From: an uncultured Gemmatimonadaceae bacterium
Lineage (GTDB): Bacteria > Gemmatimonadota > Gemmatimonadetes > Gemmatimonadales > Gemmatimonadaceae
Direction of reading: 5' to 3'
DNA length: 64,000 bases
NCBI GenBank assembly: GCA_963781585.1
Contig: CAWAGQ010000008.1
Location: 224,001 to 288,000 of the forward strand
Shown here: in pieces, positions 225 to 55,693 of the stretch
Numbering within the stretch: position 1 is the stretch's first letter
Layout: the number at the start of each line of letters is the position of its first letter
Translations under genes and position numbers: made by a program
The notes under the pieces: model-generated
Seen by the model: only the letters and a program-made list of their open reading frames with translations
Told to the model about the DNA's origin: nothing
The model's database searches: none

Positions 225-1024
225 TGCAATGGTGGTGCAGCGCGTCCAACCTGCCCTGGGCGTGGACCTGGCGGCCCTACCCCGGCGTCTGGCTGTTCAT
301 CGGGCTCGTCTTCTTCCTCGTCCGGTTGTGGAACAGGACCGCGGCAGGTCGATCCGGCCATCGCCCGCCACCAGTGCACCCTCTTTTCCTGCTCGGCCTG
401 CTGCTTCTCTGGAGCGCGCTCGACTGGCCGCTCGGCACGTTAGGCGCCGGCTATCTTGCCAGCGCGCACATGCTGCAGTTTCTGCTCATGTGTCTGGTCG
501 CGCCACCCCTGCTGCTGCGTGGCCCTTCTGGGGATGCACTCGCGATCCTGGACCGCGAAACCCGCTTCGCGAGGACATTCTGCCGCCTCACGGCGCCCGG
601 TCGCGCATTGATACTGTTCAACGCGGTGGTGCTGGTGACCCACCTGCCACCGGTCGTCGACACACTGATGCGGACCCAGCTCGGCTCGCTTGCCATCGAT
701 CTCATCTGGATCGCCGCCGGGCTGCTCTTCTGGTGGCCGGTGGTGCTGTCGTCGCCGGCCCACCCGAGGTTCTCCCCGCCGCTCAAGATCGGCTACCTGG
801 TCGTGGGCATGATGTTCAGCCCGATCATGTTCGGCCTGGTGGGCTTTCTCGTCTACAGCGACCATCCGCTCTACGGCATCTTCGAGCTCGCGCCTCCGTT
901 CCCAGGTATCAACTCACATGATGACCACCAGCTCGCCGGCGTCATGATGAGCGTCGGCGGCGCGGTGATCGCGTTCACCGCCATCAGCGTGATCTTCTTC
1001 AGGTGGAGCAAAGCCGAGGCCTAG
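224..1024 (+). CDS. ctaG: Cytochrome c oxidase (caa3-type) assembly factor CtaG family
   Basis: Multi-TM protein with 'SAHMLQFLL..LVAPPLLL', 'LLFWWPV' and 'DHQLAGVMM' motifs; stop/start overlap with the copper chaperone. Confidence 0.8.
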   Translation: MQWWCSASNLPWAWTWRPYPGVWLFIGLVFFLVRLWNRTAAGRSGHRPPPVHPLFLLGLLLLWSALDWPLGTLGAGYLASAHMLQFLLMCLVAPPLLLRGPSGDALAILDRETRFARTFCRLTAPGRALILFNAVVLVTHLPPVVDTLMRTQLGSLAIDLIWIAAGLLFWWPVVLSSPAHPRFSPPLKIGYLVVGMMFSPIMFGLVGFLVYSDHPLYGIFELAPPFPGINSHDDHQLAGVMMSVGGAVIAFTAISVIFFRWSKAEA

Positions 1025-1027
1025 CGG

Positions 1028-2653
1028 TCAACGCTCCCGCCCCGCTCTCCACTGCTCGAGCGCCTTCACCCGCGATTCGAGCGCGGCAATCCGGTCTCCG
1101 CCGGGCTGTACCGGCGCTGCCCGTGTGGCGCCCGAAGCGGCCCTCCCCACCCCACCCGGTCGCCGGCCTACTCCGCGTGTCGACACCTGGAGGAACGCGC
1201 GGCCGATCGGCCCCAGCCACACGAGGCGGAACAGGCGCTCACCGATCGGCATGCGGAACGGACCGCGCACCAGCAGAAGGAAACTGACGCCAAGCAGGCT
1301 CAGTCCCGACGCCGACATCACGAAGCGGCCTAACGACCCCCCTTCACCCGATTGCGGATCGCCGCTCCGGGTGATGCCGGCGCCGGTTCCCAGGGAAAAA
1401 CGCACGTTCAGCGATGTTCCGACGAGTACGATCGCCACCGGGAGCAGCAGCACCGCGATCAGGACCGTTCGCCGCCGGCGGCGTCTGGTGTCGGGATCGG
1501 CGCGAAGCTGCTGCCGCAGATTCTCGCGTTCGTCGACCACGGCCCGCAGCCCGCTCGACACATCGCCGGGCTGAAATCCCAGCACCGCCAGCCGACGGGC
1601 GGCGGACGACACCAGCAGCGCCCGCGTCAGCGCTATGACGATCAGGATGATCGCCGGAAGCAGCGCGTACGCCGTTCCGACTTCCTTGCGCATCGTCCGG
1701 ACCGTGAGCCAGCTGGTCAGCGTCAGAAACACGAGCACCAGACCGAGCGTCCCCGCTTCCTGCGCGAACATCCGGATCGGAACCGGGATCTCGGCTCCGG
1801 CCAGCTGGGCGACATCGATTGCTTCGACCAGCGCTTCCGCCGACGCAAATCGATCCTCCGGTTTCTTCGCCACGCAGCGGTCGATCGCGTCGCCTAACGC
1901 TGCCGGGATGTCTCCCCGCAGCTCCACCGCCCGCGGCGGCATCTCGGTCAGCTGCTTGACCAGAATCTGCTGGGTGGTCTCCCCGGTGATCTGCGGCCGC
2001 CCCGTCAGCGCGTAGAGCGCCACCAGCCCGAGCGAATACAGATCGCTCCGCCCATCGACCGAATCGCCCGACGCCTGCTCGGGGCTCATGTACTCCGGCG
2101 TGCCCACCACCTCACCGACCCGCGTCATGCCCTGCGTGCCCACCGCCGCCGTGATCGGCCTCGAGATCCCGAAATCCATCAGCTGCGCACGGCCCGTGGC
2201 GCGCTCGAGCATCACGTTGTCGGGCTTGATGTCGCGATGGACGACCCCGCGTCCATGAGCGTACGCCAGGGCATACCCGATGTCCTGCAGCAGCCGAACG
2301 ATGCCGCGCGCGTCGAGCGGTCCCGCGCGATGGACCCGCTGCGCCAGGCTCTCCCCCTCGACATACCCCATCGCGAACGCCAGCAACCCGTCGCGCTCCT
2401 CCACCGCGTGCACGGGAACGATGTTGGGATGCGAGAACGACGCCGCCGTCCGCGTCTCGCGCAGGAAGCGCTCGCGAAGAGTGGCATCGCCCGCGAACTC
2501 GGGCGGAAGCACTTTCAGTGCGACCGGCCGATCCAGCCGCAGATCGCGCGCGAGATATACCGCGCCCATGCCACCGCGACCGAGCTCGCGCTCGATCGCG
2601 TAGCGGTCGCCAAGTCGCCTGCGAATCTCGTCGAGGGAGGTCTGGTCGGTCAC
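1028..2653 (-). CDS. Hanks-type Ser/Thr protein kinase with C-terminal transmembrane helices
   Basis: GRGGMGAV, VALK, HRDIKPDN, DFG and GTPEYMSPE motifs; hydrophobic C-terminal segments; GTG start at 2653 chosen because the upstream ORF extension is low-complexity. Confidence 0.92.
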   Translation of the reverse strand: MTDQTSLDEIRRRLGDRYAIERELGRGGMGAVYLARDLRLDRPVALKVLPPEFAGDATLRERFLRETRTAASFSHPNIVPVHAVEERDGLLAFAMGYVEGESLAQRVHRAGPLDARGIVRLLQDIGYALAYAHGRGVVHRDIKPDNVMLERATGRAQLMDFGISRPITAAVGTQGMTRVGEVVGTPEYMSPEQASGDSVDGRSDLYSLGLVALYALTGRPQITGETTQQILVKQLTEMPPRAVELRGDIPAALGDAIDRCVAKKPEDRFASAEALVEAIDVAQLAGAEIPVPIRMFAQEAGTLGLVLVFLTLTSWLTVRTMRKEVGTAYALLPAIILIVIALTRALLVSSAARRLAVLGFQPGDVSSGLRAVVDERENLRQQLRADPDTRRRRRRTVLIAVLLLPVAIVLVGTSLNVRFSLGTGAGITRSGDPQSGEGGSLGRFVMSASGLSLLGVSFLLLVRGPFRMPIGERLFRLVWLGPIGRAFLQVSTRGVGRRPGGVGRAASGATRAAPVQPGGDRIAALESRVKALEQWRAGRER

Positions 2654-2879
2654 CGGGCTGGGGTCTGCTCGCGGCGAAGATGCGCCCGGCGGCGAGCTTT
2701 CGCTATGTTTCCGCGCCCCCCGGGTCAGGAAGCGTCTGTGGCTGGACGACTCTCTGGCCCGGGAGCACCTCGGCGTACTGCTCCACTGAGCGCGTACGAT
2801 TCCAGGGGTTCGGGGATTCCCGCTCGTCATCGAGCGAACCCGACATGCACACGTTACCCAAGCACGGTGAGGTGCCACA

Positions 2880-5130: not shown

Positions 5131-5168
5131 CAGGGAGGGGGAGCAAGCGCGTGAGCAAGCGACACGAA

Positions 5169-7856: not shown

Positions 7857-10800
7857 ATGCCGCGCTCGCCATTGCTCCGATCCATCGCCATCGCTGCACT
7901 CGTGACCCCCACGGTCTCGCCCGTGTTCGCACAGAATGCCGTGATGCCATTCCAGTTCGACTCCACGACCATTGCCTCGTTCCGATGGCGCAACGTCGGG
8001 CCGGCGAACACGCTCGGGCGTATCTCCGACGTGACCGGGATTCCCTCTCCCTCCAAGACGTTTTTCGCCGCGGCTGCGGGAGGAGGGATCTGGAAGTCGA
8101 CCAACAACGGCGTGACCTGGCGTCCGGTCTTCGATACCCAGCGCGTGGTGGCGATGGGCATGCTCGCGATCGCACCGAGTGACACCATGCAGGTGTGGGC
8201 CGGCACCGGCGAGCCGAACTCCCGGAACACGATCTCACCTGGAGGCGGTGTCTACAAGTCGATCGACGGCGGCATCACCTGGAAGCTGATGGGGCTCGAG
8301 CGGACCCAGGCCATCGGTCGCATTGTGGTCCATCCCACCAACCCGGATATCGTCTACGTCGCCGCGTTAGGCGCGCCGTGGAACGCCAGTCCCGAGCGCG
8401 GGCTCTACAAGACCACGGACGGCGGGCAGACGTGGCAGCTGGTGAAGTTCATTTCCGACAAGGCCGGAGTGGTGGATGTCGCGCTCGACCCGGCCAATCC
8501 CGATGTGGTCTGGGCCGCCAGCTGGCAACGGGTGCGTGGCCCGTACTTCCTGAATTCCGGCGGACCGGGCTCGGCACTGTGGAAGTCGGCCGATGCCGGC
8601 AGGACCTGGACCGAGGTCAAGGGCGGCGGCTTCCCCGAAACCACCAAAGGGCGCATCTCCATCGCCATTGCGCTCTCGAATCCGAAGACCATGTACACCA
8701 TGGTCGAAGCCGATACGGCGCCTAACGCCAAGCCGGCACCCGGGAAGCCGCGACAGGAGTCGCCCAGTGGGCTGTACCGTTCCGACGACGGCGGCGCCAC
8801 CTGGAACCGCACCAGCAACCAGAATACGCGGCCGTTCTACTACTCACAGGCGCGTGTCCACCCGAAGAACCCCGATCGTGTGTACTGGTCGTCCACTCCG
8901 GTGCTTGTCTCGAACGACGGCGGACGCACCCCGATCAATGCGACGGTCGGCATCCACGTCGATCACCACGCGATGTGGATCGATCCCATCGATCCCGACC
9001 GCATGATCGTTGGCGACGACGGAGGCGTCGCCATCTCGTTCGACCAGGGCGGAACGTATGTCTTCCCCAACGTCTTCCCCATCGGGCAGCTCTATAACAT
9101 CAGCTTCGACATGCAGGTGCCGTACCGCGTCTGCGGGGGCCTCCAGGACAACGGATCGTGGTGCGGGCCCAGCCGGCGCCGGCAGGGCCCCATCACCAAC
9201 AGCATGTGGTTCAACGTCGGCGGTGGAGATGGGTTCGTTACCCAGCAGGACCCCAACGACCCCAACACCATCTACAGCGAATCACAGGGGGGATCGGTGG
9301 GGCGCCTGAACTACGCGACCGGAGAACGGGTCAGCCTCGTGAAGCCGCAGTGGCGCCCTGCGTACGACGTGTGGGAGGATTCCCTCCTCGTCGACTTCCC
9401 GGATACCACCAGGCCGGCGACCAGGGCGCAGAAGAAGCAGGTGGCCGATATCCGCGCCCGTCAGCGCGCCGATTCCACCGCCCTCGACCTGCGCTGGAAC
9501 TGGAATTCGCCCTATTTCATTTCCCCGCACAACCCGCAGACGCTGTACTTCGGCGCGAATCGGGTACTCAAATCCACGAAGCGGGGCGATGACATGTTTC
9601 CGATCTCGCCCGATCTCACCACCGCGGACACCATGAAGATCCGCGTCTCGATGAGAACCACCGGCGGCATCACCAACGACGCCACCGGCGCCGAGACCTA
9701 TTGCACGATCGTCTCGCTCAACGAGTCGCCGATCCGGCCGGGGATCTTGTTCGCCGGCACCGACGACGGCCGCGTCTGGATCAGCCGCAACGACGGTGGC
9801 GCATGGGAAGAACTCACCGGGCGCTTCCCGGGAGTCCCGGCCGGCACCTACGTCACGCGCATCGAGCCGTCACCGCACGATTCGATGACCTTCTTCGTCA
9901 CCTTCGACAACCACCGGAACGGCGACTTTACACCCTACGCATACCTGACGACGGACTTCGGCAGGACCTTCAGGTCGATCGTCGCAAACCTGCCCAGAGG
10001 GGGGCCGGATTACGTCCACGTCATCCGACAGGACCTCGTCAACAGGAACCTCCTCTTCCTCGGCACCGATGTCGGCGCATATGTCTCGGCAAACCTGGGA
10101 CAGACGTGGCAGCGATTCATGACCGGACTGCCCACTGTGCCGGTACACGATCTCCGCATTCACCCGCGCGATCACGAGTTGATCGCGGCAACTCACGGTC
10201 GTGGAATCTGGATCGTCGACATCTCGGCGCTCGAGCAGGTCACCCCCCAGGTCATGACCCAGGATGTCCATCTGTTCGAAGCACTCACCTCGTACGAGTT
10301 CGGCGATGTGCCCGTGGAGGGACAGTCCACCGGGAACATGGTCTTCGAGGGAACGAGCTCGCCCTACGGCGTTGTCATCGCGTATCGACTGGCTGCGCGC
10401 CAGTCACCAGTCCGCGTGGCGATCATCGACGCCGCCGGCGACACGATGCAGGTGCTCAACGGACCGGGGGCGCCCGGAATCAACCGCGTCGCGTGGGGGT
10501 TCCAGGGCAAGCCACCAAAGCGTCCGCCGCTGTCCATAGCGCAACACCGTGACTCAGTCGCACAGATGGAGCGGATCGTGTTTGTGCTCGATTCCCTCGA
10601 GAAGGCTGGCATGAACACGATGATGCTCGGGATGATGCGGCAACTGGCGAAGACCGGCGACCTCACGCCGATGTTCGAAATGTTCGGCGGGGGCGGACGC
10701 GCAGCGGGACCGGGGGGCTTCGGACCGCCACCGCCATGGAACCCAAGGCCGGCAGAGCAGGCAGGCCGTGGGGGTGGTCGCGGCGGCGCCGCAGGCGGCG

Positions 10801-11433: not shown

Positions 11434-13068
11434 ATGTCAGCACTTGCCTCGTATCGCCAATCGCGCACATCGCCGTTCGGACGGCGCGTGGCGTCCGCAC
11501 TGCTTGCCGCGTTGTTCTTGGGCGCCACGGGCAGTCTCGGCGCGCAGGGCGGCAAGCCCCCTGCCAGGCCTCCCGCACGTCCCGCGGCACCCAAGCCAAC
11601 CACAGCACCGGACAGTGCCCGGCCGCAGCCGGACAGCCTCGCTTCCCAGGCGGCGCCGCCTTCGGCCGCGCTTGCCTCGATCAGCGGCAGCGTCTACGAC
11701 AGCGTGCACATGGCCCCGCTGCAGAGCGCAGTAGTGCACGTTGTGGGCACTGCCCGTATGTCGTTCACGAACGAAACGGGACACTATCGCATCGACAGCG
11801 TTCCGCCGGGAATGCGCCGGGTGGGTGTTGAACACGCGCTGCTGGATTCCATTGGCGTGACGATGGTTACGGATTCCTTTGATCTGCATGAGAGCGACAA
11901 CAAGATCCTCGATCTCGCCGTACCCTCGAGCGAGACGATGGTCGCCGTGTCCTGTCCGCCCGCCCGGCGTGCGTTAGGCCCGACGGCAATAATCGGCCGG
12001 CTGCTCGATGCCGACACCGATGCTCCTGTAGCCGGCAGCCGCGTCTCGTTTGCCTGGTCGGAGATCTCCATCACCTCCGGGTTGCGCCGTGTTCCCCGCG
12101 TAATGGACGCCACCACGGGCAAGGATGGCGTCTTCCGGATCTGCGGCCTCCCGAAGGAAGTCGAGGGGACGCTGCAAGCCGAGATGAAGGGCATCACCAC
12201 CGCCGAGGTGCCAATCAAGATCGAGGCGACGGCGCTGAGGATTCAGGGACTGCGCATCGGCAACGCGAAGACGGTCGCGCAGGTGGACAGCGACAGCACC
12301 TCGAAGCCAAAGACCGACGACAAGGTCACCGGCCAGCGCTTTTCGGCGCTCAACATGCAGCGGGGCAATGCCGTCCTGCAGGGACGCGTGGTGTTTGCCA
12401 ACGGACAGCCTGTGGCAGGCGCGCGCGTGGACGTGCGTGGGGCGCCGAGCGCCACGCTGACCAAGGAGGACGGGCAGTTCACGCTCTCGGAACTGCCGTC
12501 GGGTACGCAGACGGTGATCGCACGCCAGATCGGATTCGCCCCGGTGGAAGTACCGGTCGACCTTTCGACGCGCGCCCCGCGGAACGTGACCATCACGATG
12601 AGCAAGCCGGCGGCGCAACCGCTTCCCACCGTGGAGGTGAAGGCCGAACAGGACAAGGGGCTTATAAACCTCGGCTTCCTGTCACGACAGCGCGTGGGCA
12701 ATGGATACTTCGTTACCGGCGAGGATGTCATGAAACGCGCACCCAACGTGCTTACCGACGTGTTCCGGACCATTCCGTTGCTGCGCGTGACACCCGGCGG
12801 AGCGTACGGAAACGAGTACATTGTCGAGGAGACACGCCGGCAGGGCTTGACCAGTTGCGTGCGGTACGTGGTGGACAACGCGCCGTGGGAAGCCCTCTAC
12901 CCGGGTGATCTCGACCGCCTCATGCCTCCGTGGGAAGTCGGCGCCATCGAGGTCTACTCATCGGCAAGCGTGCCGATCCAGTTCACCGGCGCCGGTCAGT
13001 CGGCCTGTACGGTCATCGTGATATGGTCGAAGTCCAGCGTCGACGCGGCGGGCAGGCGGAAGAAGTAG
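11434..13068 (+). CDS. Secreted protein with carboxypeptidase-regulatory-like (CarboxypepD_reg) domains and a C-terminal TonB-plug-like domain
   Basis: Signal peptide plus Pro-rich linker; repeated 'I-x-G-x-V...P-V-A-G-A/S-R-V' Ig-like units; 'EVGAIEVYSS...CTVIVIWSK' plug-like end. Confidence 0.7.
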   Translation: MSALASYRQSRTSPFGRRVASALLAALFLGATGSLGAQGGKPPARPPARPAAPKPTTAPDSARPQPDSLASQAAPPSAALASISGSVYDSVHMAPLQSAVVHVVGTARMSFTNETGHYRIDSVPPGMRRVGVEHALLDSIGVTMVTDSFDLHESDNKILDLAVPSSETMVAVSCPPARRALGPTAIIGRLLDADTDAPVAGSRVSFAWSEISITSGLRRVPRVMDATTGKDGVFRICGLPKEVEGTLQAEMKGITTAEVPIKIEATALRIQGLRIGNAKTVAQVDSDSTSKPKTDDKVTGQRFSALNMQRGNAVLQGRVVFANGQPVAGARVDVRGAPSATLTKEDGQFTLSELPSGTQTVIARQIGFAPVEVPVDLSTRAPRNVTITMSKPAAQPLPTVEVKAEQDKGLINLGFLSRQRVGNGYFVTGEDVMKRAPNVLTDVFRTIPLLRVTPGGAYGNEYIVEETRRQGLTSCVRYVVDNAPWEALYPGDLDRLMPPWEVGAIEVYSSASVPIQFTGAGQSACTVIVIWSKSSVDAAGRRKK

Positions 13069-15111: not shown

Positions 15112-16560
15112 CTACTCCACCACTCGCTTCACGATCGTCCCGGCAGCGAAGGTCGTGCTTACCTCCACACCGTTGATGAGCGCCACGTCAGCAAGGGGAA
15201 TGACCGACGGGTAGGTCTGATTGAACTCAGTCACCGTCATCGCCCTCGGCAACGTCACGAGCGTGATGCGCTGAGGCTTCACGTTCAGTGCCTGCGGATC
15301 GGTCAGTTGCTGAAATGAGGAAATGGCCTGTCGGAGCGCTGCGTCGTACTGGTTCTCCAGCGCCGTCGTGGAATAGCCGAGGATCCTGTAGGTGGTCCCG
15401 TTCAGGCTCACGAACGCCACCCATCCGCTCAGGCTCCCCTGATCCGTCTGGGCACTGAACGAGCCGAGCGACGACGGCAGACCGTTGATGCTCGATGTCC
15501 CGGTCTGCTGTCCGCTCAGTCCTTGCTGGCCCAGGAAAGTTGTCAGGGCCTCGGACGGAGGCGTGGTCCCTGCCAGCGACAGCACGAGCACCGCATCCTG
15601 CGCCGGGCTGACCCCAACCACCTGGTCGGCCTGATTCGCGGTCTTCCATCCGCCCGGAAAATCAAGGCGGAATCGCAGCGTGGGGTGGAGAAACGTCGTG
15701 CCCCGGAAGTATCCCTGACGTGGATCCTCCCCGAAAACGATTCCACTCAGGTGCTGGAGGTACTGGTCGCGGTCGATCTTCAGCCCGCTCGGCAGCGGAC
15801 TCGCTGCGGCGATTCGCTGCTCCGTCTTCGCGACCCGGTTGCCGGGATCCGGATGGGTCGACAGCCAGCCCGGGGTCTTTCCACCGCTCGCGTTGCTGAT
15901 GCGCTCCAGGGTCTGGAACATCTGCTCCATGGCGTGCGGGTCGTAATGCGCCTGGAGCGTGTAGCGGAATCCCAGCTCGTCGGCCTGCGTTTCCTGGTCG
16001 CGGCTGAACTTCAGGAACAGGACGCCCATCGCCTCACTGGCCAGGTTGCCGAACTGCTGGAGTTCCGGACTCACGATCATGCCGACCCCGAGGGCAAGCC
16101 CGGCGATCTGCTGCCGCGACATTTCGTGCACCTGATGCTTCGCGGTGATATGCCCTGTTTCATGTCCCAGCACCGACACCAGCTGGGCTTCCGAATTCGC
16201 GTAGGTCAGCAGGCCTCTGGTGACGAACACCGGACCGCCGGGCAGCGCAAAGGCGTTCACCGACGCATCCTCGACCACCTGGTACGACCAGGGCAGGCCC
16301 GGACGCTCCGATTTCGGGCCGAGCATCATGCCTAACGACGAAACGTAGGCCTGCAGTGTCTGATCGTCGGTGAGTCCGATGGTCTGCGCCACTTCCTGTT
16401 TCCCCTGCTGACCGAGGGTGATCTCGTCCGACTCCGAGATCAGAGACAGCTCGCGCTTCCCGGTCACCGGGTTGGTCGCGCACGCCGCCACGGCGAGGGC
16501 CAACGCGGTGCAGCGAAACGCGGGACGGACCAGCGGGCCGGAGCCCTGAGACGTGCGCAT
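15112..16560 (-). CDS. M48 family Zn metalloprotease lipoprotein (BepA/YfgC-like)
   Basis: Lipobox 'AVAAC-ATNPVTG'; 'VNAFALPGG'; HETGH zinc motif; 'SRDQETQAD'; 'STHP'. Confidence 0.92.
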   Translation of the reverse strand: MRTSQGSGPLVRPAFRCTALALAVAACATNPVTGKRELSLISESDEITLGQQGKQEVAQTIGLTDDQTLQAYVSSLGMMLGPKSERPGLPWSYQVVEDASVNAFALPGGPVFVTRGLLTYANSEAQLVSVLGHETGHITAKHQVHEMSRQQIAGLALGVGMIVSPELQQFGNLASEAMGVLFLKFSRDQETQADELGFRYTLQAHYDPHAMEQMFQTLERISNASGGKTPGWLSTHPDPGNRVAKTEQRIAAASPLPSGLKIDRDQYLQHLSGIVFGEDPRQGYFRGTTFLHPTLRFRLDFPGGWKTANQADQVVGVSPAQDAVLVLSLAGTTPPSEALTTFLGQQGLSGQQTGTSSINGLPSSLGSFSAQTDQGSLSGWVAFVSLNGTTYRILGYSTTALENQYDAALRQAISSFQQLTDPQALNVKPQRITLVTLPRAMTVTEFNQTYPSVIPLADVALINGVEVSTTFAAGTIVKRVVE

Positions 16561-25992: not shown

Positions 25993-26008
25993 CGGAGATC
26001 CTGTCCCG

Positions 26009-35145: not shown

Positions 35146-36557
35146 GTCCGTCTCGAGACACGCTCGGGTCCGGAGCGCCGCGTCGACTCATCGAACGCCC
35201 CGTGATCGACGTCCCGGCCGGCGCTGTGCTCTCGCGCGATGAGGCCCAGGCGCTCATCCAACGCGTCATTCGCATGTCGCACGCCGAGACGGTCAAGGTG
35301 ATCATCGGCGGCGGGTACAGCACCAATATCCGCTTCGCCGACAATCAGATTTCCACCGCTGGCAGCAACACCGACTTCAATATCCAGGTCGAGAGCGCCT
35401 TCGGCCCCAGGCATGCGATCGTGGTCACCAACGACACCAGCGATCAGGCGCTGAGCCGTGCGGTCGAACAGTCCGAGCGCCTCGCCCGCCTGTCGCCGGA
35501 CGACCCCGAGGCAATGCCACCACTGGCCTCCCAGACCTATCAACCGGTCGGAGCATACTTCGATTCGGCAGCCGACATGACGCCGGATGACCGGGCTGGA
35601 GTCGCGCTCACGGCGCTCGACCCGGCTCGCAAGGCCGGTGACCTCAAAGCCGCCGGCTTCCTCGTTCTCAATGCCGGGTGTACTGCGCTCGGCAACAATC
35701 ACGGCTTGTTCGCCTATCACCGATCCACCAACGCGAACTACACGCTCACCGTTCGCACCACCGACGGTACCGGCTCGGGTTGGGCCGGCGCCGAGCATAA
35801 CGACGCGGGCAAGGTCGCGTTCGGCGCCGTAAGCCGGCAGGCCATCGAGAAGGCCAGACTCTCCCGGCAGCCGGTCGCGATCGAGCCCGGACACTACACG
35901 GTGATCTTTGAACCGCAGGCTGTCGGCGACCTCTGCCAGCTCATCGGCTTCTACATGGATGCCCGCTCCACCGACGAGGGCCGGAGTCCGTTCGTCAGGC
36001 AGGGCGGCGGCACCAGGATCGGCGAGAAGATCATCGACCAGCGGGTCAGCATTTACGCCGACCCGTTCGACCCCATGGTGCTGGCCCAGCCGTTTGACTC
36101 CGACGGATTGCCGTTAGGCAGGCAGGATTTCATCCGCAATGGCGTGCTTCAGACGCTGTACTACTCCCGCTTCTGGGCGAAGAAGAAGGGCGTCGAACCC
36201 ACCGGAGCGCCCACCTCGTTCGTCATGAGTGGCGGCGATACGACCCTCGCGGAGATGATCGCCAGTACCCCGCGCGGCATTCTGGTCACCCGCCTCTGGT
36301 ATCTCCGCGAGGTGGACCCCAGGACCATCCTCTACACCGGCCTCACGCGCGACGGCACCTTCCTCATCGAGGACGGAAAGATCACCAAGGCCATCAAGAA
36401 CTTCCGGTTCAACGACTCACCCCTGATCATGCTCAACAACCTCGACATGATCGGACAGCCGGTGCGCCTGGCCGGCACGGAGGCCGGCGGTGCCGTGGTC
36501 GTGCCGCCCATCAAGGTGCGCGACTTCAACTTCACCAGCCTGTCGGACGCGGTCTAG
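35142..36557 (+). CDS. pmbA: PmbA/TldE family partner subunit
   Basis: ATGA overlap with tldD; 'RFADNQI', 'PGHYTVIFEP', 'TGLTRDGTFLIEDG' and 'FRFN'; no HExxxH. Confidence 0.88.
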   Translation: MSPSRDTLGSGAPRRLIERPVIDVPAGAVLSRDEAQALIQRVIRMSHAETVKVIIGGGYSTNIRFADNQISTAGSNTDFNIQVESAFGPRHAIVVTNDTSDQALSRAVEQSERLARLSPDDPEAMPPLASQTYQPVGAYFDSAADMTPDDRAGVALTALDPARKAGDLKAAGFLVLNAGCTALGNNHGLFAYHRSTNANYTLTVRTTDGTGSGWAGAEHNDAGKVAFGAVSRQAIEKARLSRQPVAIEPGHYTVIFEPQAVGDLCQLIGFYMDARSTDEGRSPFVRQGGGTRIGEKIIDQRVSIYADPFDPMVLAQPFDSDGLPLGRQDFIRNGVLQTLYYSRFWAKKKGVEPTGAPTSFVMSGGDTTLAEMIASTPRGILVTRLWYLREVDPRTILYTGLTRDGTFLIEDGKITKAIKNFRFNDSPLIMLNNLDMIGQPVRLAGTEAGGAVVVPPIKVRDFNFTSLSDAV

Positions 36558-38391: not shown

Positions 38392-39801
38392 ATGCGGTCG
38401 CGGGGCGTCCGCTCCCCAGTCCACGAGCTCCGCCCGGTACCCGCACAGCACCGGCAGCGCCGCCGGTGCCTGTCCGCGCTGCTCCTGGCTGCGCTTCTCG
38501 TCGCGCTTCCATCCAACCTCCATGCACAGCGGCTCCGGGATCGTCTCTCGCAGCTGTTCATCTTCGGTCCGGGAGAGGAACCCCTGTTCCTGGCCGGAAC
38601 CGCCACGGCTTCCAACCCGGACATCATCCGCATCCACGGCAATCACTTCGTCCCGTCCGCCGTGGCGGAGAACGGATCCGTCATCGGGTTCGTGACCGGC
38701 GCCCTGGCGTCGCGTGTGGCAAGTGTTCCCATCGGCGCGACCACGAGCGGCGAGACCTTCCGTTTCGAAGGCGGCGTCCCGGTCAGCACGTCCACCTCTG
38801 CCGGTCCGGTATTCGCCGAACGGGCCCAGACACTGGGACGCGGCCGCGTGCTCGCTGGCTTGAACCAGACGAATCTCACGTTCACGTCGTTGCGAGGGGT
38901 CCCACTCAGCGGCCTGCACCTCACGTTCACACATGAGAACGTGAATTTCGACGGGTGCAGCGAACAGCAAGGAGATGACTGCGCCAAGATGGGTGTGCCG
39001 GTGCTCGAAAACGATCTCATGCAGTTCGATCTCGGCCTGGACATTCACGTCGCTGTCACCTCGTTCTACGCCACCTACGGAATCAGCGACAAGGTCGATT
39101 TCGGCATCGTGCTCCCTCTCATGCGCACCACCATCACCGGTCGCAGTGACGCCCGGATTCAGCCCTTTGGAGGCACGACCGCCACGCACTTCTTCGCCGG
39201 CACGCCCGAGAATCCGGTGCTTGAAGCCAGTCGCACCATCTCGGGTTCGGCATTCGGCATCGGCGACGTCGCCGCCCGTCTCAAAATCAATGCTCGCCAG
39301 ACTCCGAACAGCGGTGTTGCCTTGCTCTTCGAAGCCCGCTTCCCAACTGGCGACGACGCGGATCTGCTCGGCTCCGGTCACTTCGGCGGCCGTGCCCTCG
39401 CCATTCTGTCGTCCACCATCGGGGCGTTCTCCCCGCATTTCAATGCGGGATACCTCTACACCGCCGACCGCACACGAAACGACTTCGTGGTTGCCACCGC
39501 GGGGTTCGATCAGCTCCTCGCCAAGGGGGTGACCATGGCCGCCGACGTTGCCGGAGAGTTCCAGGTCGGCGCGAGCAAACTGATCCTGCCACGCCCGGTC
39601 GTGTACGACTCGCCGTTCCATCGCACCGTGAACCCGACATCGATCCCTGACATCCGCGATGATGTCATCAATGGCAGCTTCGGCCTGAAGTACTCGACGC
39701 CGAGTCGCGTCACACTGGTCGCCAACACCATATTCCCGCTCAACGACGGCGGTCTGCGTGCGCGCCTCACCTACACGTTAGGTATCGAATACTCCTACTG
39801 A
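38392..39801 (+). CDS. Outer-membrane beta-barrel 'transporter' (MetA-pathway/phenol_MetA_deg-like); start uncertain
   Basis: Signal peptide; 'GPVFAERAQTLG', 'GIGDVAARLK', 'PTGD' and C-terminal 'LGIEYSY' aromatic barrel signature. Confidence 0.65.
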   Translation: MRSRGVRSPVHELRPVPAQHRQRRRCLSALLLAALLVALPSNLHAQRLRDRLSQLFIFGPGEEPLFLAGTATASNPDIIRIHGNHFVPSAVAENGSVIGFVTGALASRVASVPIGATTSGETFRFEGGVPVSTSTSAGPVFAERAQTLGRGRVLAGLNQTNLTFTSLRGVPLSGLHLTFTHENVNFDGCSEQQGDDCAKMGVPVLENDLMQFDLGLDIHVAVTSFYATYGISDKVDFGIVLPLMRTTITGRSDARIQPFGGTTATHFFAGTPENPVLEASRTISGSAFGIGDVAARLKINARQTPNSGVALLFEARFPTGDDADLLGSGHFGGRALAILSSTIGAFSPHFNAGYLYTADRTRNDFVVATAGFDQLLAKGVTMAADVAGEFQVGASKLILPRPVVYDSPFHRTVNPTSIPDIRDDVINGSFGLKYSTPSRVTLVANTIFPLNDGGLRARLTYTLGIEYSY

Positions 39802-41696: not shown

Positions 41697-41913
41697 GGGG
41701 CGGGTGAGCGTCTGGTCCCGGACTCGATTCGGGACGTCTATAGTGGGCGCACCGCTCCCCGCTCGCAACTGTGTGCATCGAGGCGGGACACCGAAGCACG
41801 GGTGGCCCGCTCCCGTGACATCGCCCCGCGCGGAACCGACCCACTCCCTCCCGACCTGCACGGCGACCGCCGCCTGGGTGCCGTGTGCGGCGCCCCAGTG
41901 GTCGCACAATGCG

Positions 41914-42282
41914 TTAGGCGACGACGATTCTCAGTTGGATGTGATCACCGGGTTCGATCAGCACGTCCCGGCTGGTGATCGTAACCTGCGCTCCGAATCG
42001 TCGCACCATGAAACGCATCGAAGCCCGCGCCCGCGTCAGCGATCGAGGAAGCGTGAATGTCGTCTTCTGCATCGCGTGGACCACCCCGAGCTCCGTCGGT
42101 AGGCCCCCGTACACCACGTACACCACCATGTCATCGAGACGCTCATTCCGCACCTCGAGCACGGTCTTCGTGGAGTCGACCGGATCGGGAGTGGTCGTCT
42201 CCACGAGCACGGATTGCGCCCGCGCCGTCCCACCAACGGAAGCGACTGCCACGAGCGCCAGCATCACAACAAGGGGCCGCAT
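41914..42282 (-). CDS. Small secreted hypothetical protein
   Basis: GGAGG RBS; signal peptide; 'LEVRN...VVYVV...LGVV' beta-sandwich. Confidence 0.7.
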   Translation of the reverse strand: MRPLVVMLALVAVASVGGTARAQSVLVETTTPDPVDSTKTVLEVRNERLDDMVVYVVYGGLPTELGVVHAMQKTTFTLPRSLTRARASMRFMVRRFGAQVTITSRDVLIEPGDHIQLRIVVA

Positions 42283-44967: not shown

Positions 44968-46640
44968 CTACCATGCCACTGCATATGCCTCCCGCCGGGG
45001 ATCGGCTCCCGCCAACCGCGCTCCTGATCGGTCAATCACGATCATTTGGGCGCCTCCGAACTCTGCGCTGGGCTCCTGCACCGTCACGCTCTGTCCCCTG
45101 CGCCTGAGATCACTGCGCACGTCTTCGCCAATTCCCGGTTCCACGGCGATGCGCCCCCGGTTGAACACACGCCAGCGCGGCGCCTCAACCGCCTGCTGGG
45201 GCGTCATCCCGAATCGCCAGACGTTGTTCAGGATCTGGATCAGCGTCTGTGGCTGACCATCTCCGCCCGGAGTCCCGAACACCGCCGCCAGTGACCGATC
45301 TGCATTCAGCGCCATCGCCGGACTCAGGGTGTGGAAAGGTCGCTTTCCCGGCGCGATCACGTTCGGGTGCGAGGGATCGAGGCTGAACAACGACCCCCGA
45401 TTCTGAAGAATGATCCCCGTACCAGGCACCATCCTCCCGCTCCCGAATTCGGCGAACAGACTCTGAATCATCGATACCGCGTTCCCATCCTTGTCCACTA
45501 CACAGAGGTAGACCGTATCGCCGGCCCCATCGAATGGCGGATTCCCCTGGTTAGGCGCGGCGACGCTGTCGATCCGAATGCGACTGCCCAGGTCCCGCGC
45601 ATACGCCTTCGACAGCAGCCGGTCCAGCGGAACAGGGGAAAACGCGGGATCGGCCAGATAACGGTCACGGTCGGAATAGGCCAGCTTGGCACCCTCGGCC
45701 AGGATGTGGATGTACGCAGCCGAGTTCCACCCCGCGTGCGTCAGGTCCGTCAGCTCCGCGAGATTGAGCATCTCGAGAAACGCCATGCCCTGCGAGTTTG
45801 GAGGGAATGCCAGCACCGTCCTTCCCAGATAGAGCGTGGATATTGGCTCCTCCCAGGTCGAGCGGTGACTGGACAGGTCCGGACCCGTTAGGAGCCCTCC
45901 CTCTTTCTCCATGAATTGCACAATCCTGCCGGCAAGGGCTCCGGAATACAGCCCCTCCGAGCCCTCGCGCGCGATTGTGCGAAGCGTGCCGGCGAGGTCG
46001 TGTTCGACCAGCATGCTGCCCGGTCGCGGCGCGGCGCCATCCTGCAGGAAAACCCGCGCAAGCTCCGGATCGGCCGCAACTTTTGCTTTCTCCTCCGTGA
46101 TATCGCTCCACAGCCGGCTGCTTACCGGAAAACCGCGCTCGGCATAGGAAATCGACGGCGCGAGTGCCTGGTCGAGCGTGATCGTTCCGAACCGCTTCAA
46201 CGCATCCTCCCAGGCCCGCACCGCGCCCGGTACTGAAACCGAGAGAATTCCCGTCGCCGGTACCGAATTGAGATTTCGCTCGGCAAAGAAGGCGGCGTCG
46301 CTCGAGCGCCGGCTCGTCCACTGCCATTCAGTGCGTACACGCGGCCGGTCCGCGCCTCGCGAATGAGAAGGAACGCATCTCCCCCCACGCCGTTCATGTG
46401 CGGCCGCACCACCGCCAGAACACCCGCCATCGTGATCGCGGCATCAACCGCGTTCCCCCCACGCCGCAACACCGCCGCGCCCGCCGCCGACGCCAGGGCA
46501 TGATCAGACACGACTGCAGCTTCTGATCCCATTACATCCGGACGCATCATTGGTCGCTGAGCTCCGAGCATGCCGGAAAGAGCAAGACCTGAAGTGAGAA
46601 TCAAGCCGTTGACAGCGGGCGCTCGGTGATGGACGGTCAT
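44968..46640 (-). pseudogene. ggt: Gamma-glutamyltransferase, split by a 1-bp frameshift near 46295
   Basis: N-part 'GGNAVDAAI..HMNGVGGDAF..ALNGSGRA' is in one frame; 'AFFAERN..SVSVPGAVRAW..GDTVYL..RPFHTL..GTPGGDGQPQ' is in another. Confidence 0.85.
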
Positions 46641-47284: not shown

Positions 47285-49519
47285 ATGGCGACAACCGCGA
47301 ACTCCACGCGCAAAGACGTCCTTCATGCCGTCTCCGCGCGTCTCGTGAAATCCACTCCTCCCTCCACCAACGGCACGGGGGTGCATCACGCCGCTCCGGT
47401 GTCCGAATACTTCGGCGTCAACACCTTTGGCGTTAGGCAGATGCGCTCGAAGCTCCCGGTGGATGCATGCGACAAGCTGGTCAGCGCCATCCGCCATGGC
47501 AAGAAACTCGACGTCGACATCGCCTCCACCGTCGCTCAGGCAATCAAGGAGTGGGCCATCGCACGCGGCGCAACCCACTTCACACATTGGTTCCAGCCGC
47601 AAACTGGCCTCACTGCTGAGAAGCACGATGCCTTCCTGACCTTCGACGAGAACCGCCAGCCGATCGAGCAGTTCTCCGCCGCCCAGTTGATCCAGAGCGA
47701 GCCAGACGCCTCGAGCTTCCCCTCCGGTGGATTGCGCGCCACCTGGGAAGCCCGCGGTTATACCGCCTGGAATCCCGCAAGTCCGGTCTTTGTCTTCGAA
47801 TCGGGAGGTGTGCGCACCCTCTGCATTCCATCCGTGTTCATTGGTTATAACGGAGAAGCGCTCGACGAGATGACGCCGCTGCTGCGCAGCTCAGACGTCC
47901 TGTCGGCAAAGGCGATCGAACTTCTCGAGCTGCTCGGGGACAAGCAGGTCTACCGCGTCTTCACCACGCTCGGCCCGGAGCAGGAGTACTTCCTGATCGA
48001 CCGCCAGCACTTTGCATTGCGACCGGATCTGGTCATGGCAAATCGCACGCTCGTCGGCGCCGCCCCACCAAGGGGACAGCAGCTCGAAGACCACTACTTC
48101 GCTGGCATTCCCGAACGCACCCATGCCTGCATTGCGGAGGTCGAACACGAGCTCTACAAGCTTGGAGTGCCGATCGTCACTCGACATAACGAGGTCGCAC
48201 CCTCGCAGTTCGAGATGGCGCCTGTCTTCGAGGAAACCGACATCGCCGTCGACCACAACCAGCTGGTCATGGCCCTGCTTCGACGCGTCGCCCTTCGCCA
48301 CGGCCTGCAGGCCATCGTTCATGAAAAACCGTTCGCGGGAATCAATGGCTCCGGGAAGCACTGCAATTGGTCCATGGCGGTTGCCGCAGACAGCGATCTC
48401 GATGGACTGAACTTGCTCAAGCCGGGACGCACACCCCACCAGAACCTCCGCTTCCTGCTCTTCCTTGCAGCCGTCCTCAAGGCGGTTCACGAACACGCCG
48501 GGCTCCTCCGGGCCGGCGTAGCCAGTTCCGGAAACGAGCATCGACTCGGTGCAAACGAAGCTCCCCCTGCAATCATCTCCGTCTTCATGGGCGACATGCT
48601 CACCCGCCTGATCGAAGGCATCATCGCCGGTCGCGCACACAGCAAGAGCGCCGAGCAGGAACTCATCCGACTCGGGGTCGCTAAGCTTCCGGAGATCGAG
48701 AAGGACAATACGGACCGCAATCGCACCTCTCCCTTCGCCTTCACCGGCGCCAAGTTCGAGTTCCGCGCCGTTGGCGGAGGCCAATCCATAGCTTGGCCCG
48801 TCACCCTGCTCAATGCCGCGGTTGCCGGTGCGATCGAGCACATCACCGACGATCTCCGCGCCGAGAAGAAGAAAACGCGCAACATCGACGATGCCGTCCT
48901 GCGCGTCGTTCGCCGCATCTTCAAGGAAACAGCGCCGGTACGCTTCGAGGGAAACAACTACGCGGAGTCGTGGGTGACCGAAGCGGCTCGCCGCGGACTT
49001 CCCAACTACCGCCGCACACCTGAGGCACTCGGCCAGCTCATTACCAGGAAGTCCCGCGCGTTGCTCGTCGGTCTCGGTGTTCTCACCGACCGCGAACTCG
49101 ACTCACGCTATCACGTGCGCATGGAAAGGTACGTGAAGGATATGCTCATCGAGCTGCACATGATGCGTGAAATGGTGGACACCATGGTACTCCCGGCCGC
49201 GTTCGGATACGCCGGAAGTCTCGCGGCCGCGGCAGCTCAGGCGAAGGCGGCCGGCATTAGGGAGATCCCCCAGATCGACCGCGCCAATGAGGTCGGCAAA
49301 CTCGCGAAGGAGCTCAAATCCAGGCGCGACGCGCTCGTGAAGGTCATCGAGAAAGCGGAAGCCGCGCACGACGACGCCACCAGGGCCGCATTGTTGCTTA
49401 CCGGCGACGGCGCGGCAGCCATGGAGATGGTCCGCATTGCCTCCGACTCGCTCGAGCTCCTGATTGCCGACGATCAGTGGCCGCTTCCAAAGTATCGCGA
49501 AATGCTGTTTCCCGTCTGA
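47285..49519 (+). CDS. Glutamine synthetase type III
   Basis: 'THWFQPQTGLTAEKHDAF', 'EPDASSFPSGG', 'HNEVAPSQFE', 'GINGSGKHCNWS', 'HRLGANEAPP', 'RNRTSPFAFTG..FEFR' and 'WPLPKYREMLF'. Confidence 0.96.
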   Translation: MATTANSTRKDVLHAVSARLVKSTPPSTNGTGVHHAAPVSEYFGVNTFGVRQMRSKLPVDACDKLVSAIRHGKKLDVDIASTVAQAIKEWAIARGATHFTHWFQPQTGLTAEKHDAFLTFDENRQPIEQFSAAQLIQSEPDASSFPSGGLRATWEARGYTAWNPASPVFVFESGGVRTLCIPSVFIGYNGEALDEMTPLLRSSDVLSAKAIELLELLGDKQVYRVFTTLGPEQEYFLIDRQHFALRPDLVMANRTLVGAAPPRGQQLEDHYFAGIPERTHACIAEVEHELYKLGVPIVTRHNEVAPSQFEMAPVFEETDIAVDHNQLVMALLRRVALRHGLQAIVHEKPFAGINGSGKHCNWSMAVAADSDLDGLNLLKPGRTPHQNLRFLLFLAAVLKAVHEHAGLLRAGVASSGNEHRLGANEAPPAIISVFMGDMLTRLIEGIIAGRAHSKSAEQELIRLGVAKLPEIEKDNTDRNRTSPFAFTGAKFEFRAVGGGQSIAWPVTLLNAAVAGAIEHITDDLRAEKKKTRNIDDAVLRVVRRIFKETAPVRFEGNNYAESWVTEAARRGLPNYRRTPEALGQLITRKSRALLVGLGVLTDRELDSRYHVRMERYVKDMLIELHMMREMVDTMVLPAAFGYAGSLAAAAAQAKAAGIREIPQIDRANEVGKLAKELKSRRDALVKVIEKAEAAHDDATRAALLLTGDGAAAMEMVRIASDSLELLIADDQWPLPKYREMLFPV

Positions 49520-52323: not shown

Positions 52324-53142
52324 ATGAGTGCCCCGTCGCCCCCATCCCAGATCATATGCCCCGCCTGTGGCACAGCCGGAACAGGTCGGTACTGTGCAGA
52401 GTGTGGTGCCGTCCTTCAGGGTGCCACCTGCGCGGCCTGTCGTTCGCTTCTCGCTCCCGGGGCAAAGTTCTGCCACCGATGCGGAGCGACAGTCGGCTCG
52501 GCTCTCCCCGCGGCAACTCCCCTTCCGCCTGCCCACCGGGCGCCTGGTGCCCCTTCGGTAGGCTCACTCCCCTGGCTCTTTGCGGGCCTTGCCGTCGTGG
52601 CCTTGATCGTGATCCTGCTCGCTCAACGATCCGGCAATGCTGGCGTCGCAGGCGGAGGGACACCGGGCGGTGCTCCGTTTGCGGGCACTTCAGGCATGGC
52701 GTCCGCCCCCGACATCTCGTCCATGACACCTGAAGAGCGGGCCAGCCGACTTTTCGATCGTATCATGCGGTTGGCCACCGAAGGCAAGCAGGACAGCGTG
52801 AGCCTCTTTGCCTCGATGGCCATTCCCGTCTATGAGTCGTTAGGCCCCCTCAATGCGGACCAGCACTACGACTTCGGCCGTGTTGCCGAAGTGAGCGGCA
52901 GTCTCGACATCGCCGCGGCCCAAGCGGATTCGATTCTGAGACAATCACCGACTCACCTCCTCGGACTGATACTCGCCGCGCGTGTCGCCGACATGAAGGG
53001 CAACCAGGCCGCCCGGAATGCTTTCGAAAAACGATTCCTGGCCGCCCAAGCCGCCGAACTCGCGAAGAACCTCCCCGAGTACACTCTGCACCGCACCGAC
53101 ATCGAGGCCGCCGCTGCTGCCGCCAACTCTGGCAAGGGCTGA
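52324..53142 (+). CDS. Double zinc-ribbon membrane protein with TPR-like extracytoplasmic domain
   Basis: CPAC-CAEC-CAAC-CHRC; one TM; 'PTHLLGLILAA' TPR-like segment. Confidence 0.75.
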   Translation: MSAPSPPSQIICPACGTAGTGRYCAECGAVLQGATCAACRSLLAPGAKFCHRCGATVGSALPAATPLPPAHRAPGAPSVGSLPWLFAGLAVVALIVILLAQRSGNAGVAGGGTPGGAPFAGTSGMASAPDISSMTPEERASRLFDRIMRLATEGKQDSVSLFASMAIPVYESLGPLNADQHYDFGRVAEVSGSLDIAAAQADSILRQSPTHLLGLILAARVADMKGNQAARNAFEKRFLAAQAAELAKNLPEYTLHRTDIEAAAAAANSGKG

Positions 53143-54039: not shown

Positions 54040-54324
54040 CACTGCTGCTGGGCGTCGCTGCAGCGCGTCATGCCGTGATCATCGGCACCGGCAAGAACCA
54101 CAGCCGCGAATGCGTACAGGCCTCGCTCCAGCACTCGGGTCAAATGCACACGCGGTCACCGTCCGACTCGACCGCGCTCCCAGTGCTGGCACCGTCGCAC
54201 CGCAGGGCCTAACGTTCGGGAGCGGCTCTGCTACGCCCGTACCGGCCATGCCCTGAGATAGACCGCCGTTCTGTAGCTCGGGCTTCCCCTCCCCTCCGTT
54301 GCCTGCCGAGCTCATTCTTCCGGC

Positions 54325-54353: not shown

Positions 54354-54496
54354 GGTGTTCGCGCCGGGACCGTCTTGACCACGGCACGTCGCCGTGCGTA
54401 TCGGCACGGTGCTACCGACGCACGGGTTGCGACTGGCAGCGGCTCGTGATCTGACTTGGCATCTGTTTGGTTGATCACATCAAGCAGGAGGCGGTC

Positions 54497-55030
54497 ATGC
54501 CGCGCGGCGAGGAGTGGACGAGGAAGCTGAGGTTCTCCGACGAGGATGAGGTGGACGACCTCGGGTATGGCGGCTCCTCGTTCGACGATGATGAGGATGA
54601 CGACGAATCGGGATGGACGTCCGCGAAACAAAGCAGCGGTCTTTGGGACGAGCCGGAGGAAGCAGTCCTCGAGGAAGAAGAGGACCTCGTCGATCTCGCT
54701 GATGAGGAACCCGCAACCACGGTTGAAGCCGAGGAGGAGGAGATCGCGGTCTTCGGGGCACCACCCCCTGTCGCACGAGTGCGGGCAGCCAGAGGTTCCA
54801 CAACGCCTCGCAAGGAGACTGCAAAACCCGCTGCGGCCAAACCCCCGGCCCGGAAGCACCCCGCGGCAGCCGTGCGAAAGTCGGCCCCCAAGAAGAAGGC
54901 CGCGAAGAAAGCCCCGCCCAGGCGCTCGAAGCCCCCGGTGAAGAAGAAGGCCACCAGAAAAGGCGCCCCGAAACGCACTGTCGCTTCCAGGAGCTCCAAG
55001 CGCAGCAAACCCGCAAAGCACAAGAAGTAA
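54497..55030 (+). CDS. Disordered bipartite protein: acidic N-half, histone H1/Hc2-like Lys-Ala-Pro C-half
   Basis: AGGAGG RBS; D/E runs, then 'KPAAAKPPARK..KKKAAKKAP..KKKATRK'. Confidence 0.75.
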   Translation: MPRGEEWTRKLRFSDEDEVDDLGYGGSSFDDDEDDDESGWTSAKQSSGLWDEPEEAVLEEEEDLVDLADEEPATTVEAEEEEIAVFGAPPPVARVRAARGSTTPRKETAKPAAAKPPARKHPAAAVRKSAPKKKAAKKAPPRRSKPPVKKKATRKGAPKRTVASRSSKRSKPAKHKK

Positions 55031-55147
55031 TCACGTCTCCGCCTCACCCGTCGTTGGCGGGCGCTGCGTCTGCAAAGGCGCAAAACACGACCATCATCGA
55101 GCCTGTCGTCTGGCGGACCAAAGCGGACCCGGGGTAATCTTCGCGTC

Positions 55148-55693
55148 ATGGCGGAGTCCCCCCTCGCACTGCTTCGCGCTCACGCGCGTCACGCTCCCTG
55201 GAATGCGCGGGGACTCGCGGCACATGTGACTGCGCTCGTTGATGCAGCCGGCGTGCGACCGACCAACACGTCGGCGCGCGCCGCACCCACCGCGCGGGCG
55301 GTGCGATTCTACGTGTCCAATCAACTGATGGACCGCCCTGACGGACTCGGGACTGCGGCCACCTACAACTACCGTCACTTCCTTCAACTCCTTGCCATCA
55401 AGATACGACAGCGCGAGGGCATTACGCTCAGCGCGATCAAGAAGGAGATCAGGGAGACAACCGGTGATGCGCTGGAACGTCGTGTAGCGCAGGCCCTCGC
55501 CCCGGTCCTTCTCACCGGCACCCCCACTGCAGCCGGACACGACGATGAGCACGCTGCGTCATGGCGGCGCATTCCCGTCGCCGACGGTATCGAACTGCAC
55601 ATACGCGACGACTCTCCTGCATCACGAGATGATACCGTGGTTGCCATGCGGGAAGCCGTCAGAACCACGTTAGGCCGAACGGAGATGCGCTGA
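55148..55693 (+). CDS. MerR-family HTH transcriptional regulator
   Basis: 'ARAVRFYVSNQLMDRP..ATYNYRH..LLAIK..EGITLSAIK'; C-terminal 'WRRIPVADGIELHI'. Confidence 0.8.
   Translation: MAESPLALLRAHARHAPWNARGLAAHVTALVDAAGVRPTNTSARAAPTARAVRFYVSNQLMDRPDGLGTAATYNYRHFLQLLAIKIRQREGITLSAIKKEIRETTGDALERRVAQALAPVLLTGTPTAAGHDDEHAASWRRIPVADGIELHIRDDSPASRDDTVVAMREAVRTTLGRTEMR

Follow-up and report, generated by a model that had tools for sequence, protein, structure and literature searches.

A hyper-abundant, self-spacing octamer in Gemmatimonadales genomes: a candidate uptake-sequence-like tag

What force writes the word CGTTAGG again and again into the genes of an uncultured Gemmatimonadaceae bacterium, even where this takes a TTA codon that the genome otherwise nearly avoids? 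We addressed this question for a stretch of 64,000 nucleotides (the window; G000:C8:224001-288000) from a 5.7-Mb bin of 17 contigs, whose GlnA has its closest relatives in metagenome-assembled genomes of the Gemmatimonadaceae at no more than 85% identity. In the window CGTTAGG occurs 23 times (13 on the plus strand, 10 on the minus strand), where order-2 and order-3 Markov models expect 1.5-2.1 copies, and the following base is C in 18 of the 23 and T in 3. The full word has eight letters, CGTTAGGC. It is the most over-represented 8-mer of the genome, with 1,442 copies against 44 expected at order 2 (32-fold), or about one per 4 kb; the 7-mer totals 1,706 copies and stands at 2.4-3.8 per 10 kb on every one of the 17 contigs. 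The ends of the word are loose, since CGTTAGGT (183 copies), TGTTAGGC (79) and CGTTAGGG (53) also occur in the genome; tolerance at the ends is graded, with minor dialects between lineages. The preceding base is C in just 11% of genomic copies. In 800 kb of a word-poor relative, G003, no other word exceeded 3.1-fold. The bin combines two related strains, with contigs C5 and C8 paired over 355 kb, C2 and C6 over 193 kb, and C11 and C17 over 62 kb at 88-91% identity; genome totals count strain duplicates twice, and the pairing gave 460 orthologue pairs.

The placement of the copies supports a feature of the double-stranded DNA, not of the message; a sequence-only reading of the window had proposed that the force acts on the DNA word and not on translation. 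All frame counts rest on 4,514 genes called with our own dicodon model (83% coding; low-GC genes are under-called). The window census of that reading was reproduced in full: 15 copies read x-Leu-Gly, three CTA-ACG, one CCT-AAC and one GTT-AGG, two supply TAA stops and one is intergenic. Its observation that TTA is nearly confined to the word was also borne out, in that 15 of the 16 in-frame TTA codons lie in the word and the 16th, at 53740, is a near-match (the gene calls exclude the open reading frame with the TTA at 62109). Across the genome there are 877 sense x-Leu-Gly copies, 309 antisense Pro-Asn, 76 antisense Leu-Thr and 31 Val-Arg, with 289 outside called genes and 124 at gene edges, including 50 TAA and 72 TAG stops. 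The genome-wide check that the sequence-only reading suggested agrees: TTA makes up 27.3% of leucine codons in the context NCG-Leu-GGN (879/3,221) and 0.2% where neither neighbour fits (230/117,140). Its statement that rare codons and TAA stops fall inside the word stands for TTA (879 of 1,280 in the genome, 69%) and was overstated for CTA (76/1,145) and AGG (31/5,750); TAA stops stand at 51/338. The antisense Pro-Asn opportunity is filled in 28% of cases (311/1,114) and the sense x-Leu-Gly opportunity in 18% (879/4,824).

Control of translation or of the mRNA, whether by bldA-type gating through TTA, a dicodon effect or an RNA motif, would account for the concentration of TTA codons in the word. 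However, it is refuted by antisense and intergenic copies, by the use of four reading frames, by conservation that is confined to the word and by copies in the housekeeping genes pyrG, atpD and ddl, and we give it practically no credence. In bldA-type control TTA is limited to non-essential genes and the effect to the coding strand, and neither holds here. Moreover, the host is a member of the Gemmatimonadaceae, not a streptomycete, and an ordinary tRNA-Leu(UAA) is present, so the earlier doubt about a bldA-type explanation was well placed. For this genome ARAGORN also reports a tRNA-SeC and one tRNA-like prediction whose anticodon is TTA ('Stop').

Between the co-binned strains the word was kept at 186 of 209 x-Leu-Gly sites, at a third-position identity of 78%, and at 42 of 58 Pro-Asn sites, counted from both sides; codon-matched controls were kept well below this (8/35, 2/28 and 128/212). 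The ortholog alignment proposed in the sequence-only reading gives the same picture codon by codon: where leucine is retained, TTA is kept at 187 of 201 positions inside the word and at 25 of 75 outside it. Over 800 kb and 302 orthologues of G003, which has 13 copies of the word there, the sites aligned to the word show ordinary codons without gaps, and x-Leu-Gly is still encoded at 30 of 61. The word therefore arises by point mutation. Occupancy is 7% in genes with low GC at third codon positions (GC3) and 25-29% in high-GC3 genes, and several of the longest word-free gaps contain CRISPR-cas or IS21 genes. Despite the low occupancy of low-GC3 genes, strain-specific genes carry the word as often as shared ones.

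The word has no polarity with respect to replication. On the three contigs where dnaA and GC skew fixed the replichore, the ratio of sense to antisense copies was 224/88 in leading genes and 110/48 in lagging genes (p=0.67), and intergenic copies divided 38/36. On this lack of leading/lagging bias, replichore-polar signals such as Chi and KOPS were rejected. Terminus-bound sites were also rejected, as occupancy is flat along a 1.1-Mb contig that contains the skew switch. In both strains, sites less than 50 kb from dnaA are occupied in 8-13% of cases; GC is lower in this region. One of the two dnaA genes of the bin is 45-110 kb away from the window; around both genes, at G000:C8 295-357 kb and C5 250-350 kb, GC is 61-63%, GC skew is strongest and copies of the word are fewer.

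Copies of the word exclude one another. Close pairs are scarcer than in 100 resamplings of the codon opportunities, at less than 100 bp (2 observed, 27 expected) as well as at 100-200 bp (5 and 29) and 200-300 bp (11 and 27). The ratio to expectation climbs from 0.07 through 0.17 and 0.41 over these intervals to 0.59 at 300-500 bp, 0.75 at 500-1,000 bp and about 1 beyond, and a fit gives an exclusion length of about 500 bp. An x-Leu-Gly site with another copy less than 100 bp away is occupied in 2 of 235 cases, and one beyond 1 kb in about 23%. Exclusion is alike for same, convergent and divergent pairs. The few close pairs do not look like regulatory clusters, as the 13 pairs within 110 bp have no gene type in common.

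A halo of raised GC content surrounds the word. At 13-40 bp, GC at four-fold sites is 3.6 points over the gene's distal level and falls off with a decay length of 229 +/- 18 bp. Within genes the near-minus-far difference is +2.45 points (confidence interval 2.1-2.8) and is positive in 659 of 943 genes, whereas sites moved randomly within their own genes give 0.17 +/- 0.16. The halo is symmetric, is present for both orientations and shifts GC in the same direction in 32 of 32 four-fold codon contexts; intergenic GC likewise drops, from 0.688 near the word to 0.640 farther away. In contrast, it is absent at 1,554 unoccupied x-Leu-Gly sites, at unoccupied Pro-Asn sites and at 281 other TTA codons. 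Close to the word A/T sites are less conserved and G/C sites more conserved: the base opposite an A/T site in the other strain is more often G/C (0.55 against 0.43-0.45), and that opposite a G/C site is more rarely A/T (0.066-0.069 against 0.080-0.084), neither comparison being gene-centred. Total silent divergence does not change with distance from the word, and no zone of lower mutation was seen around it. The halo recurs in four of five groups of pooled loci from other word-rich genomes. Its shape suggests short recombination tracts centred on the word, and a context-free GC bias over short tracts is the trace that would be expected of gene conversion. The reverse causation, in which the word settles in stretches made GC-rich by some lineage-specific cause, is weakened.

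Word-rich genomes are scattered over three Gemmatimonadales families. At least 100 copies per Mb were found in 9 of 40 near relatives (maximum 1,247 per Mb) and, in a phylum sample of 300 genomes, in 9 of 70 members of family f1, 3 of 125 of f2 (all genus g79), 0 of 3 of f3 and 0 of 102 outside the order; the two samples overlap, and the rich members of f3 (G036 and G040) are in the former. Densities span 3-1,250 copies per Mb, and the densest genomes stand at 940-1,250. Within the single genus g51, G239 and G296 reach about 950-970 per Mb and G292 stands at 13; genera g79 and g33 offer like contrasts, and rich and poor genomes are interleaved on a quick single-gene tree. The word-poor genomes compared include the unpublished G008, on which no claim depends alone. 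The megaplasmid (plasmid 1, NZ_CP007129.1) of the cultured soil isolate Gemmatirosa kalamazoonensis KBS708 carries 801 copies of the 7-mer against 38 of a reversed control.

The word extends to a second phylum and to a provirus. Metagenomes were scanned for pairs of copies some 300 bp apart, which gave at least 121 matches; of these, 36 loci of at least 5 kb were examined. Two of these loci (58-59% GC) hold 21 and 12 copies per 20 kb on both strands, against 0.4-0.5 expected and with two copies in each owed to the selection. Their Acs and RhlE are 81-89% identical to Chthoniobacterales/Verrucomicrobiota records, and they use the same word with the same tolerated variants as Gemmatimonadales; both loci are from a single assembly and could belong to one organism. 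Among viral sequences a scan gave at least 120 matches, and among the matches listed 21 of 62 loci of at least 8 kb hold five or more copies, most of them one-stranded with paired inverse cores, like cassette arrays. The provirus IMGVR_UViG_3300037261_000237 (L350/G322), which encodes a terminase, a portal protein and a holin, carries the word 26 times, dispersed over 25.5 kb and chiefly in the Pro-Asn and Val-Arg frames. In literature consisting largely of papers free of subscription we found no description of CGTTAGGC as a whole word, although supplementary oligomer tables (e.g. PMC3497702, PMC1939737) could list it; among the titles and abstracts listed, none describes such an iterated word for Gemmatimonadota or Chthoniobacterales, and two papers contain GTTAGGC or GCCTAAC in other contexts.

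We read CGTTAGGC as an uptake-sequence-like tag that drives its own spread, a reading that we regard as evenly poised. A sequence-specific protein would favour word-bearing DNA from kin, at uptake or at handover to recombination. Word-bearing alleles would then overwrite alleles without the word, which would build up by point mutation wherever the protein sequence permits, TTA included. The incoming pieces would be short, a few hundred bases. Because of this a second nearby copy would gain nothing, leaving an exclusion zone, and the flanks would become GC-richer because they undergo more gene conversion. Exclusion, together with a halo that is absent in the word-poor relative, fits short recombination tracts, and an uptake-sequence-like drive is therefore favoured; where the sequence-only reading named selection or a mutational drive without choosing between them, spacing and halo favour a recombination-linked drive without proving one.

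The established tags offer a close parallel. Like the DNA uptake sequences (DUS) of Neisseriaceae and the uptake signal sequences (USS) of Pasteurellaceae, the word is short and asymmetric, present in hundreds to thousands of copies on both strands and in preferred frames; a point-mutational origin and dialects are further likenesses, as scarcity in newly acquired DNA may be, given low occupancy in low-GC3 genes on the one hand and equal occupancy of strain-specific genes and a dense provirus on the other (PMC7811141, PMC2817400, 10.1101/2025.10.24.684340; here and below, papers are cited for the portions accessible to us). It shares with them a two-strand excess in coding and non-coding DNA and silent-site conservation, and its host has competence genes, as do word-poor genomes: comEC is present in 40 of 41 genomes, and ComEA-like and type IV pilin genes are present in the host. 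In Haemophilus influenzae two USS within 100 bp bring no gain in uptake, and short fragments give narrow, USS-centred peaks (PMC7811141). Unlike DUS and USS, this is another word in other phyla, it uses very rare instead of preferred codons, and it is patchy within genera.

Several observations weigh against this reading. About half of DNA uptake-enhancing sequences (DUES) sit in terminators (10.1101/2025.10.24.684340), whereas inverted terminator pairs, a hallmark of DUS and USS, are almost absent here, with one close head-to-head pair between convergent genes. DUS dialects are family-bound, whereas this word is common to two phyla. No reader protein was identified among the candidates that we compared across rich and poor genomes: comEC is equally present in word-poor genomes, and ComEA, MutL and the UvrD family do not track the word (five genomes each). 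ComP is the DUS receptor in Neisseriaceae; among 48 pilin-like sequences of six genomes, covering part of the pilin loci in five of them, no ComP-like pilin stood out, and one PilW-like gene of a minor-pilin cluster was unlinked to the word across 80 genomes. A literature search found no natural transformation of Gemmatimonadota. In a small sample genome-maintenance genes showed no bias towards the word, which mutS, polA, dnaA and dnaN lack. As to the halo, its absence at orthologous positions of G003 (-0.6 +/- 0.45, against +1.1 +/- 0.45 in the host) speaks for the reading, but the contrast is only about 2.7 standard errors, with sites taken as independent. No halo was seen in a group of 72-73% GC (121 kb, L164 and G303 stretches), and in most bacteria tested GC content is weakly or not correlated with recombination (PMC4866539). 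Because terminator pairs and a known receptor are both missing, we do not class the word as a DUS or USS.

The same pattern might instead come from inside the cell. In a repair ratchet, the word would be marked by a methyltransferase or another reader, and repair within a few hundred bases would copy the marked strand, so that new copies are fixed only far from existing ones. Under Elhai's model for HIP1, sites should saturate at about one per kb and none should be gained beside an existing one (PMC4390886); both the densest genomes and the exclusion agree with this. The word also resembles HIP1 (GCGATCGC) of cyanobacteria as a hyper-abundant octamer under purifying selection with patchy losses (PMC13756078, PMC5861425), and HIP1 has recently been linked to transformation (PMC13756078). 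HIP1, however, is palindromic and contains sites of two known methyltransferases, whereas this word is asymmetric. The candidate reader is an order-wide pair at G000:C2:155388-160996 (L118:5388-10996), in which a 1,076-aa type IIG/DrmMI-like N6-adenine methyltransferase overlaps a 797-aa SNF2 helicase (DrmD/DpdE-like). Type IIG enzymes recognise asymmetric 6-7-mers. Of 41 relatives, 40 have the methyltransferase, as do 19 of 19 further Gemmatimonadales and the families f4 and f5; matches elsewhere are only weak. Its catalytic motifs are intact, and MutS and MutL are present. The pair is single-copy and conserved, more like a housekeeping pair than a mobile defence system. A cognate methyltransferase should be co-distributed with the word, but genomes with as few as 3-30 copies conserve this one candidate just as well. 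In an alignment of 16 rich and 22 poor sequences, no column splits the two classes beyond what shuffling gives (best 0.65; shuffled 95th percentile 0.64), so we rejected it as a factor specific to rich genomes. Flat silent divergence leaves no zone of better fidelity around the word, and a mark on one strand should exclude same-orientation neighbours only, whereas the observed exclusion ignores orientation. We consider the ratchet rather unlikely. Less probable still is a binding site of an abundant chromosome protein for nucleoid organisation or protection, held by purifying selection as proposed for HIP1, with the bound DNA excluding neighbours and shifting base composition. Conservation, even spacing, the lack of strand bias and equal density on the megaplasmid would suit such a site, and HIP1 shows conservation and periodicity (PMC5861425). 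But densities of 3-1,250 per Mb, and of 13-970 within one genus, are hard to square with a structural need, and protection alone would lower GC-to-AT change, not raise AT-to-GC change, whereas both shift (not gene-centred). Also encoded in the genome is a C5 cytosine methyltransferase with a fused Vsr endonuclease domain (G000:C7:477045-478676; L121:7045-8676).

Two further explanations start from known recombination systems. The integron core site R' has the consensus GTTRRRY (PMC12901181), which the word matches, and in the word-poor genomes G027 and G025 the word is letter for letter the right-hand end of the attC sites in cassette arrays. An integrase or a protein derived from one might thus bind or recombine at the core site GTTAGGC, and the recurrence of the same word and tolerated variants in a second phylum and the presence of intI in most rich genomes are in keeping with this. 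Genomic copies, however, are single, without L boxes and without the inverse core and hairpin that attC sites have 40-140 bp upstream: there are 16 inverse-core/core pairs against 1,706 copies, a few of them true attC, and the preceding base differs from that in the G027 and G025 arrays, where it is usually C or T. Many poor genomes have a full-length intI, whereas none turned up in the rich but incomplete bins G005, G015, G024, G130 and G172. On a tree of 13 rich and 14 poor integrases the two are interleaved, with 10 changes against 9.9 in shuffled trees, and 29 integrases did not cluster by word status. Conversion, moreover, would be expected to remove a cut site, not to gain one. We find an integron link quite improbable. 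The arrays themselves are long, with attC every ~550 bp ending in CGTTAGGC (L081, G027:C95:1-20000; L082, G025:C3:1-9000), and the host has three identical 303-aa integrase-like genes (G000:C7:172407, C7:183006 and C13:309327), two of them adjoining a full intI (C7:185885), with similar genes in G001, G014 and G027. A Chi site of the RecBCD or AddAB helicase-nuclease would also be an asymmetric octamer of similar density, one per 4 kb, and the halo suggests a tie to recombination. Chi orientation is biased with replication, whereas this word is non-polar. No RecBCD or AddAB was found in the host. In addition, the nuclease domain of AddA, AddB and RecB (PF12705) turned up in 2 of the 22 rich genomes, never as a pair, compared with 3 of the 8 of middle density and 25 of the 50 poor ones (nominal p=0.001 for rich against poor); these 80 Gemmatimonadales genomes were picked by density, close kin among them are not independent, and six rich bins are less than 90% complete. 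Because the enzyme class is mostly missing from rich genomes, a classical Chi site is largely refuted and, in our judgement, very improbable. Ku, in 21 of 22 rich, 7 of 8 middle and 33 of 50 poor genomes, is associated with the word and not sufficient for it, and both skews may reflect a soil habitat. Over the 80 genomes, 50 have no strong AddAB/RecB nuclease match, the complete G303 among them, and 61 have Ku.

In the window the copies lie as follows, each followed by C unless another base is named. On the plus strand the x-Leu-Gly frame is used at 438..444 (a ctaG-like gene), 8365..8371, 11972..11978, 34439..34445 (tldD-like), 36112..36118 (pmbA-like), 39776..39782 (close to the gene end; next base T), 52838..52844 and 55668..55674. 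The minus strand uses it at 1329..1335 and 1893..1899 (both in one Ser/Thr kinase gene), 16331..16337 (M48 peptidase-like), 27725..27731 (GMC oxidoreductase-like), 29021..29027 (next base T), 29737..29743 and 31861..31867 (next base G). Antisense Leu-Thr copies are at 32748..32754 (plus; next base T), 45886..45892 (plus; gamma-glutamyltransferase-like gene; next base A) and 59864..59870 (minus; TolB-like gene). The antisense Pro-Asn copy is at 8721..8727 (minus) and the Val-Arg copy at 47431..47437 (plus). The copies at 26007..26013 and 41912..41918, both plus, give the TAA stops of minus-strand genes, and that at 54208..54214 (minus) lies outside called genes. Most positions in the sequence-only reading were exact; its 8720, 54207 and 59863 point to the base with which the 8-mer opens on the plus strand, the 7-mer there starting at 8721, 54208 and 59864, and the span that it gave, 438..55675, leaves out the last of these. 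At 61253-61459 the window has a cold-shock protein gene, and the longer 345-aa open reading frame ending there (60422-61459) is probably read-through of non-coding DNA. Elsewhere the genome carries tandem arrays, tens of units long, whose degenerate unit has 6-7 bases and is of the GGCCTTT type (e.g. C5:101611, C5:230665, C2:7499).

To our knowledge, uptake tags are established in just two bacterial families. Beyond the uptake-sequence-like reading itself, it is possible, though doubtful, that Gemmatimonadales and Chthoniobacterales have a third, independent system of sequence-tagged DNA exchange, with a reader tuned to the integron core GTTAGGC; it would take in cassettes and kin DNA from short soil fragments, stamp the word on chromosomes and leave a footprint of GC-biased conversion. 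GC-biased gene conversion, a contested matter in bacteria, predicts fine-scale signals centred on a motif, and the halo is one of this rare kind. The TTA codons are a warning that rare-codon arguments, such as those for TTA control, can be artefacts of DNA words. HIP1 has gone without explanation for thirty years. Another hyper-abundant word, this time from soil phyla that are themselves abundant and from a cultured strain, offers a new test case, with built-in controls in the rich and poor genomes of one genus. Should the word prove to raise uptake, genetic work on Gemmatimonadota would gain a practical tool.

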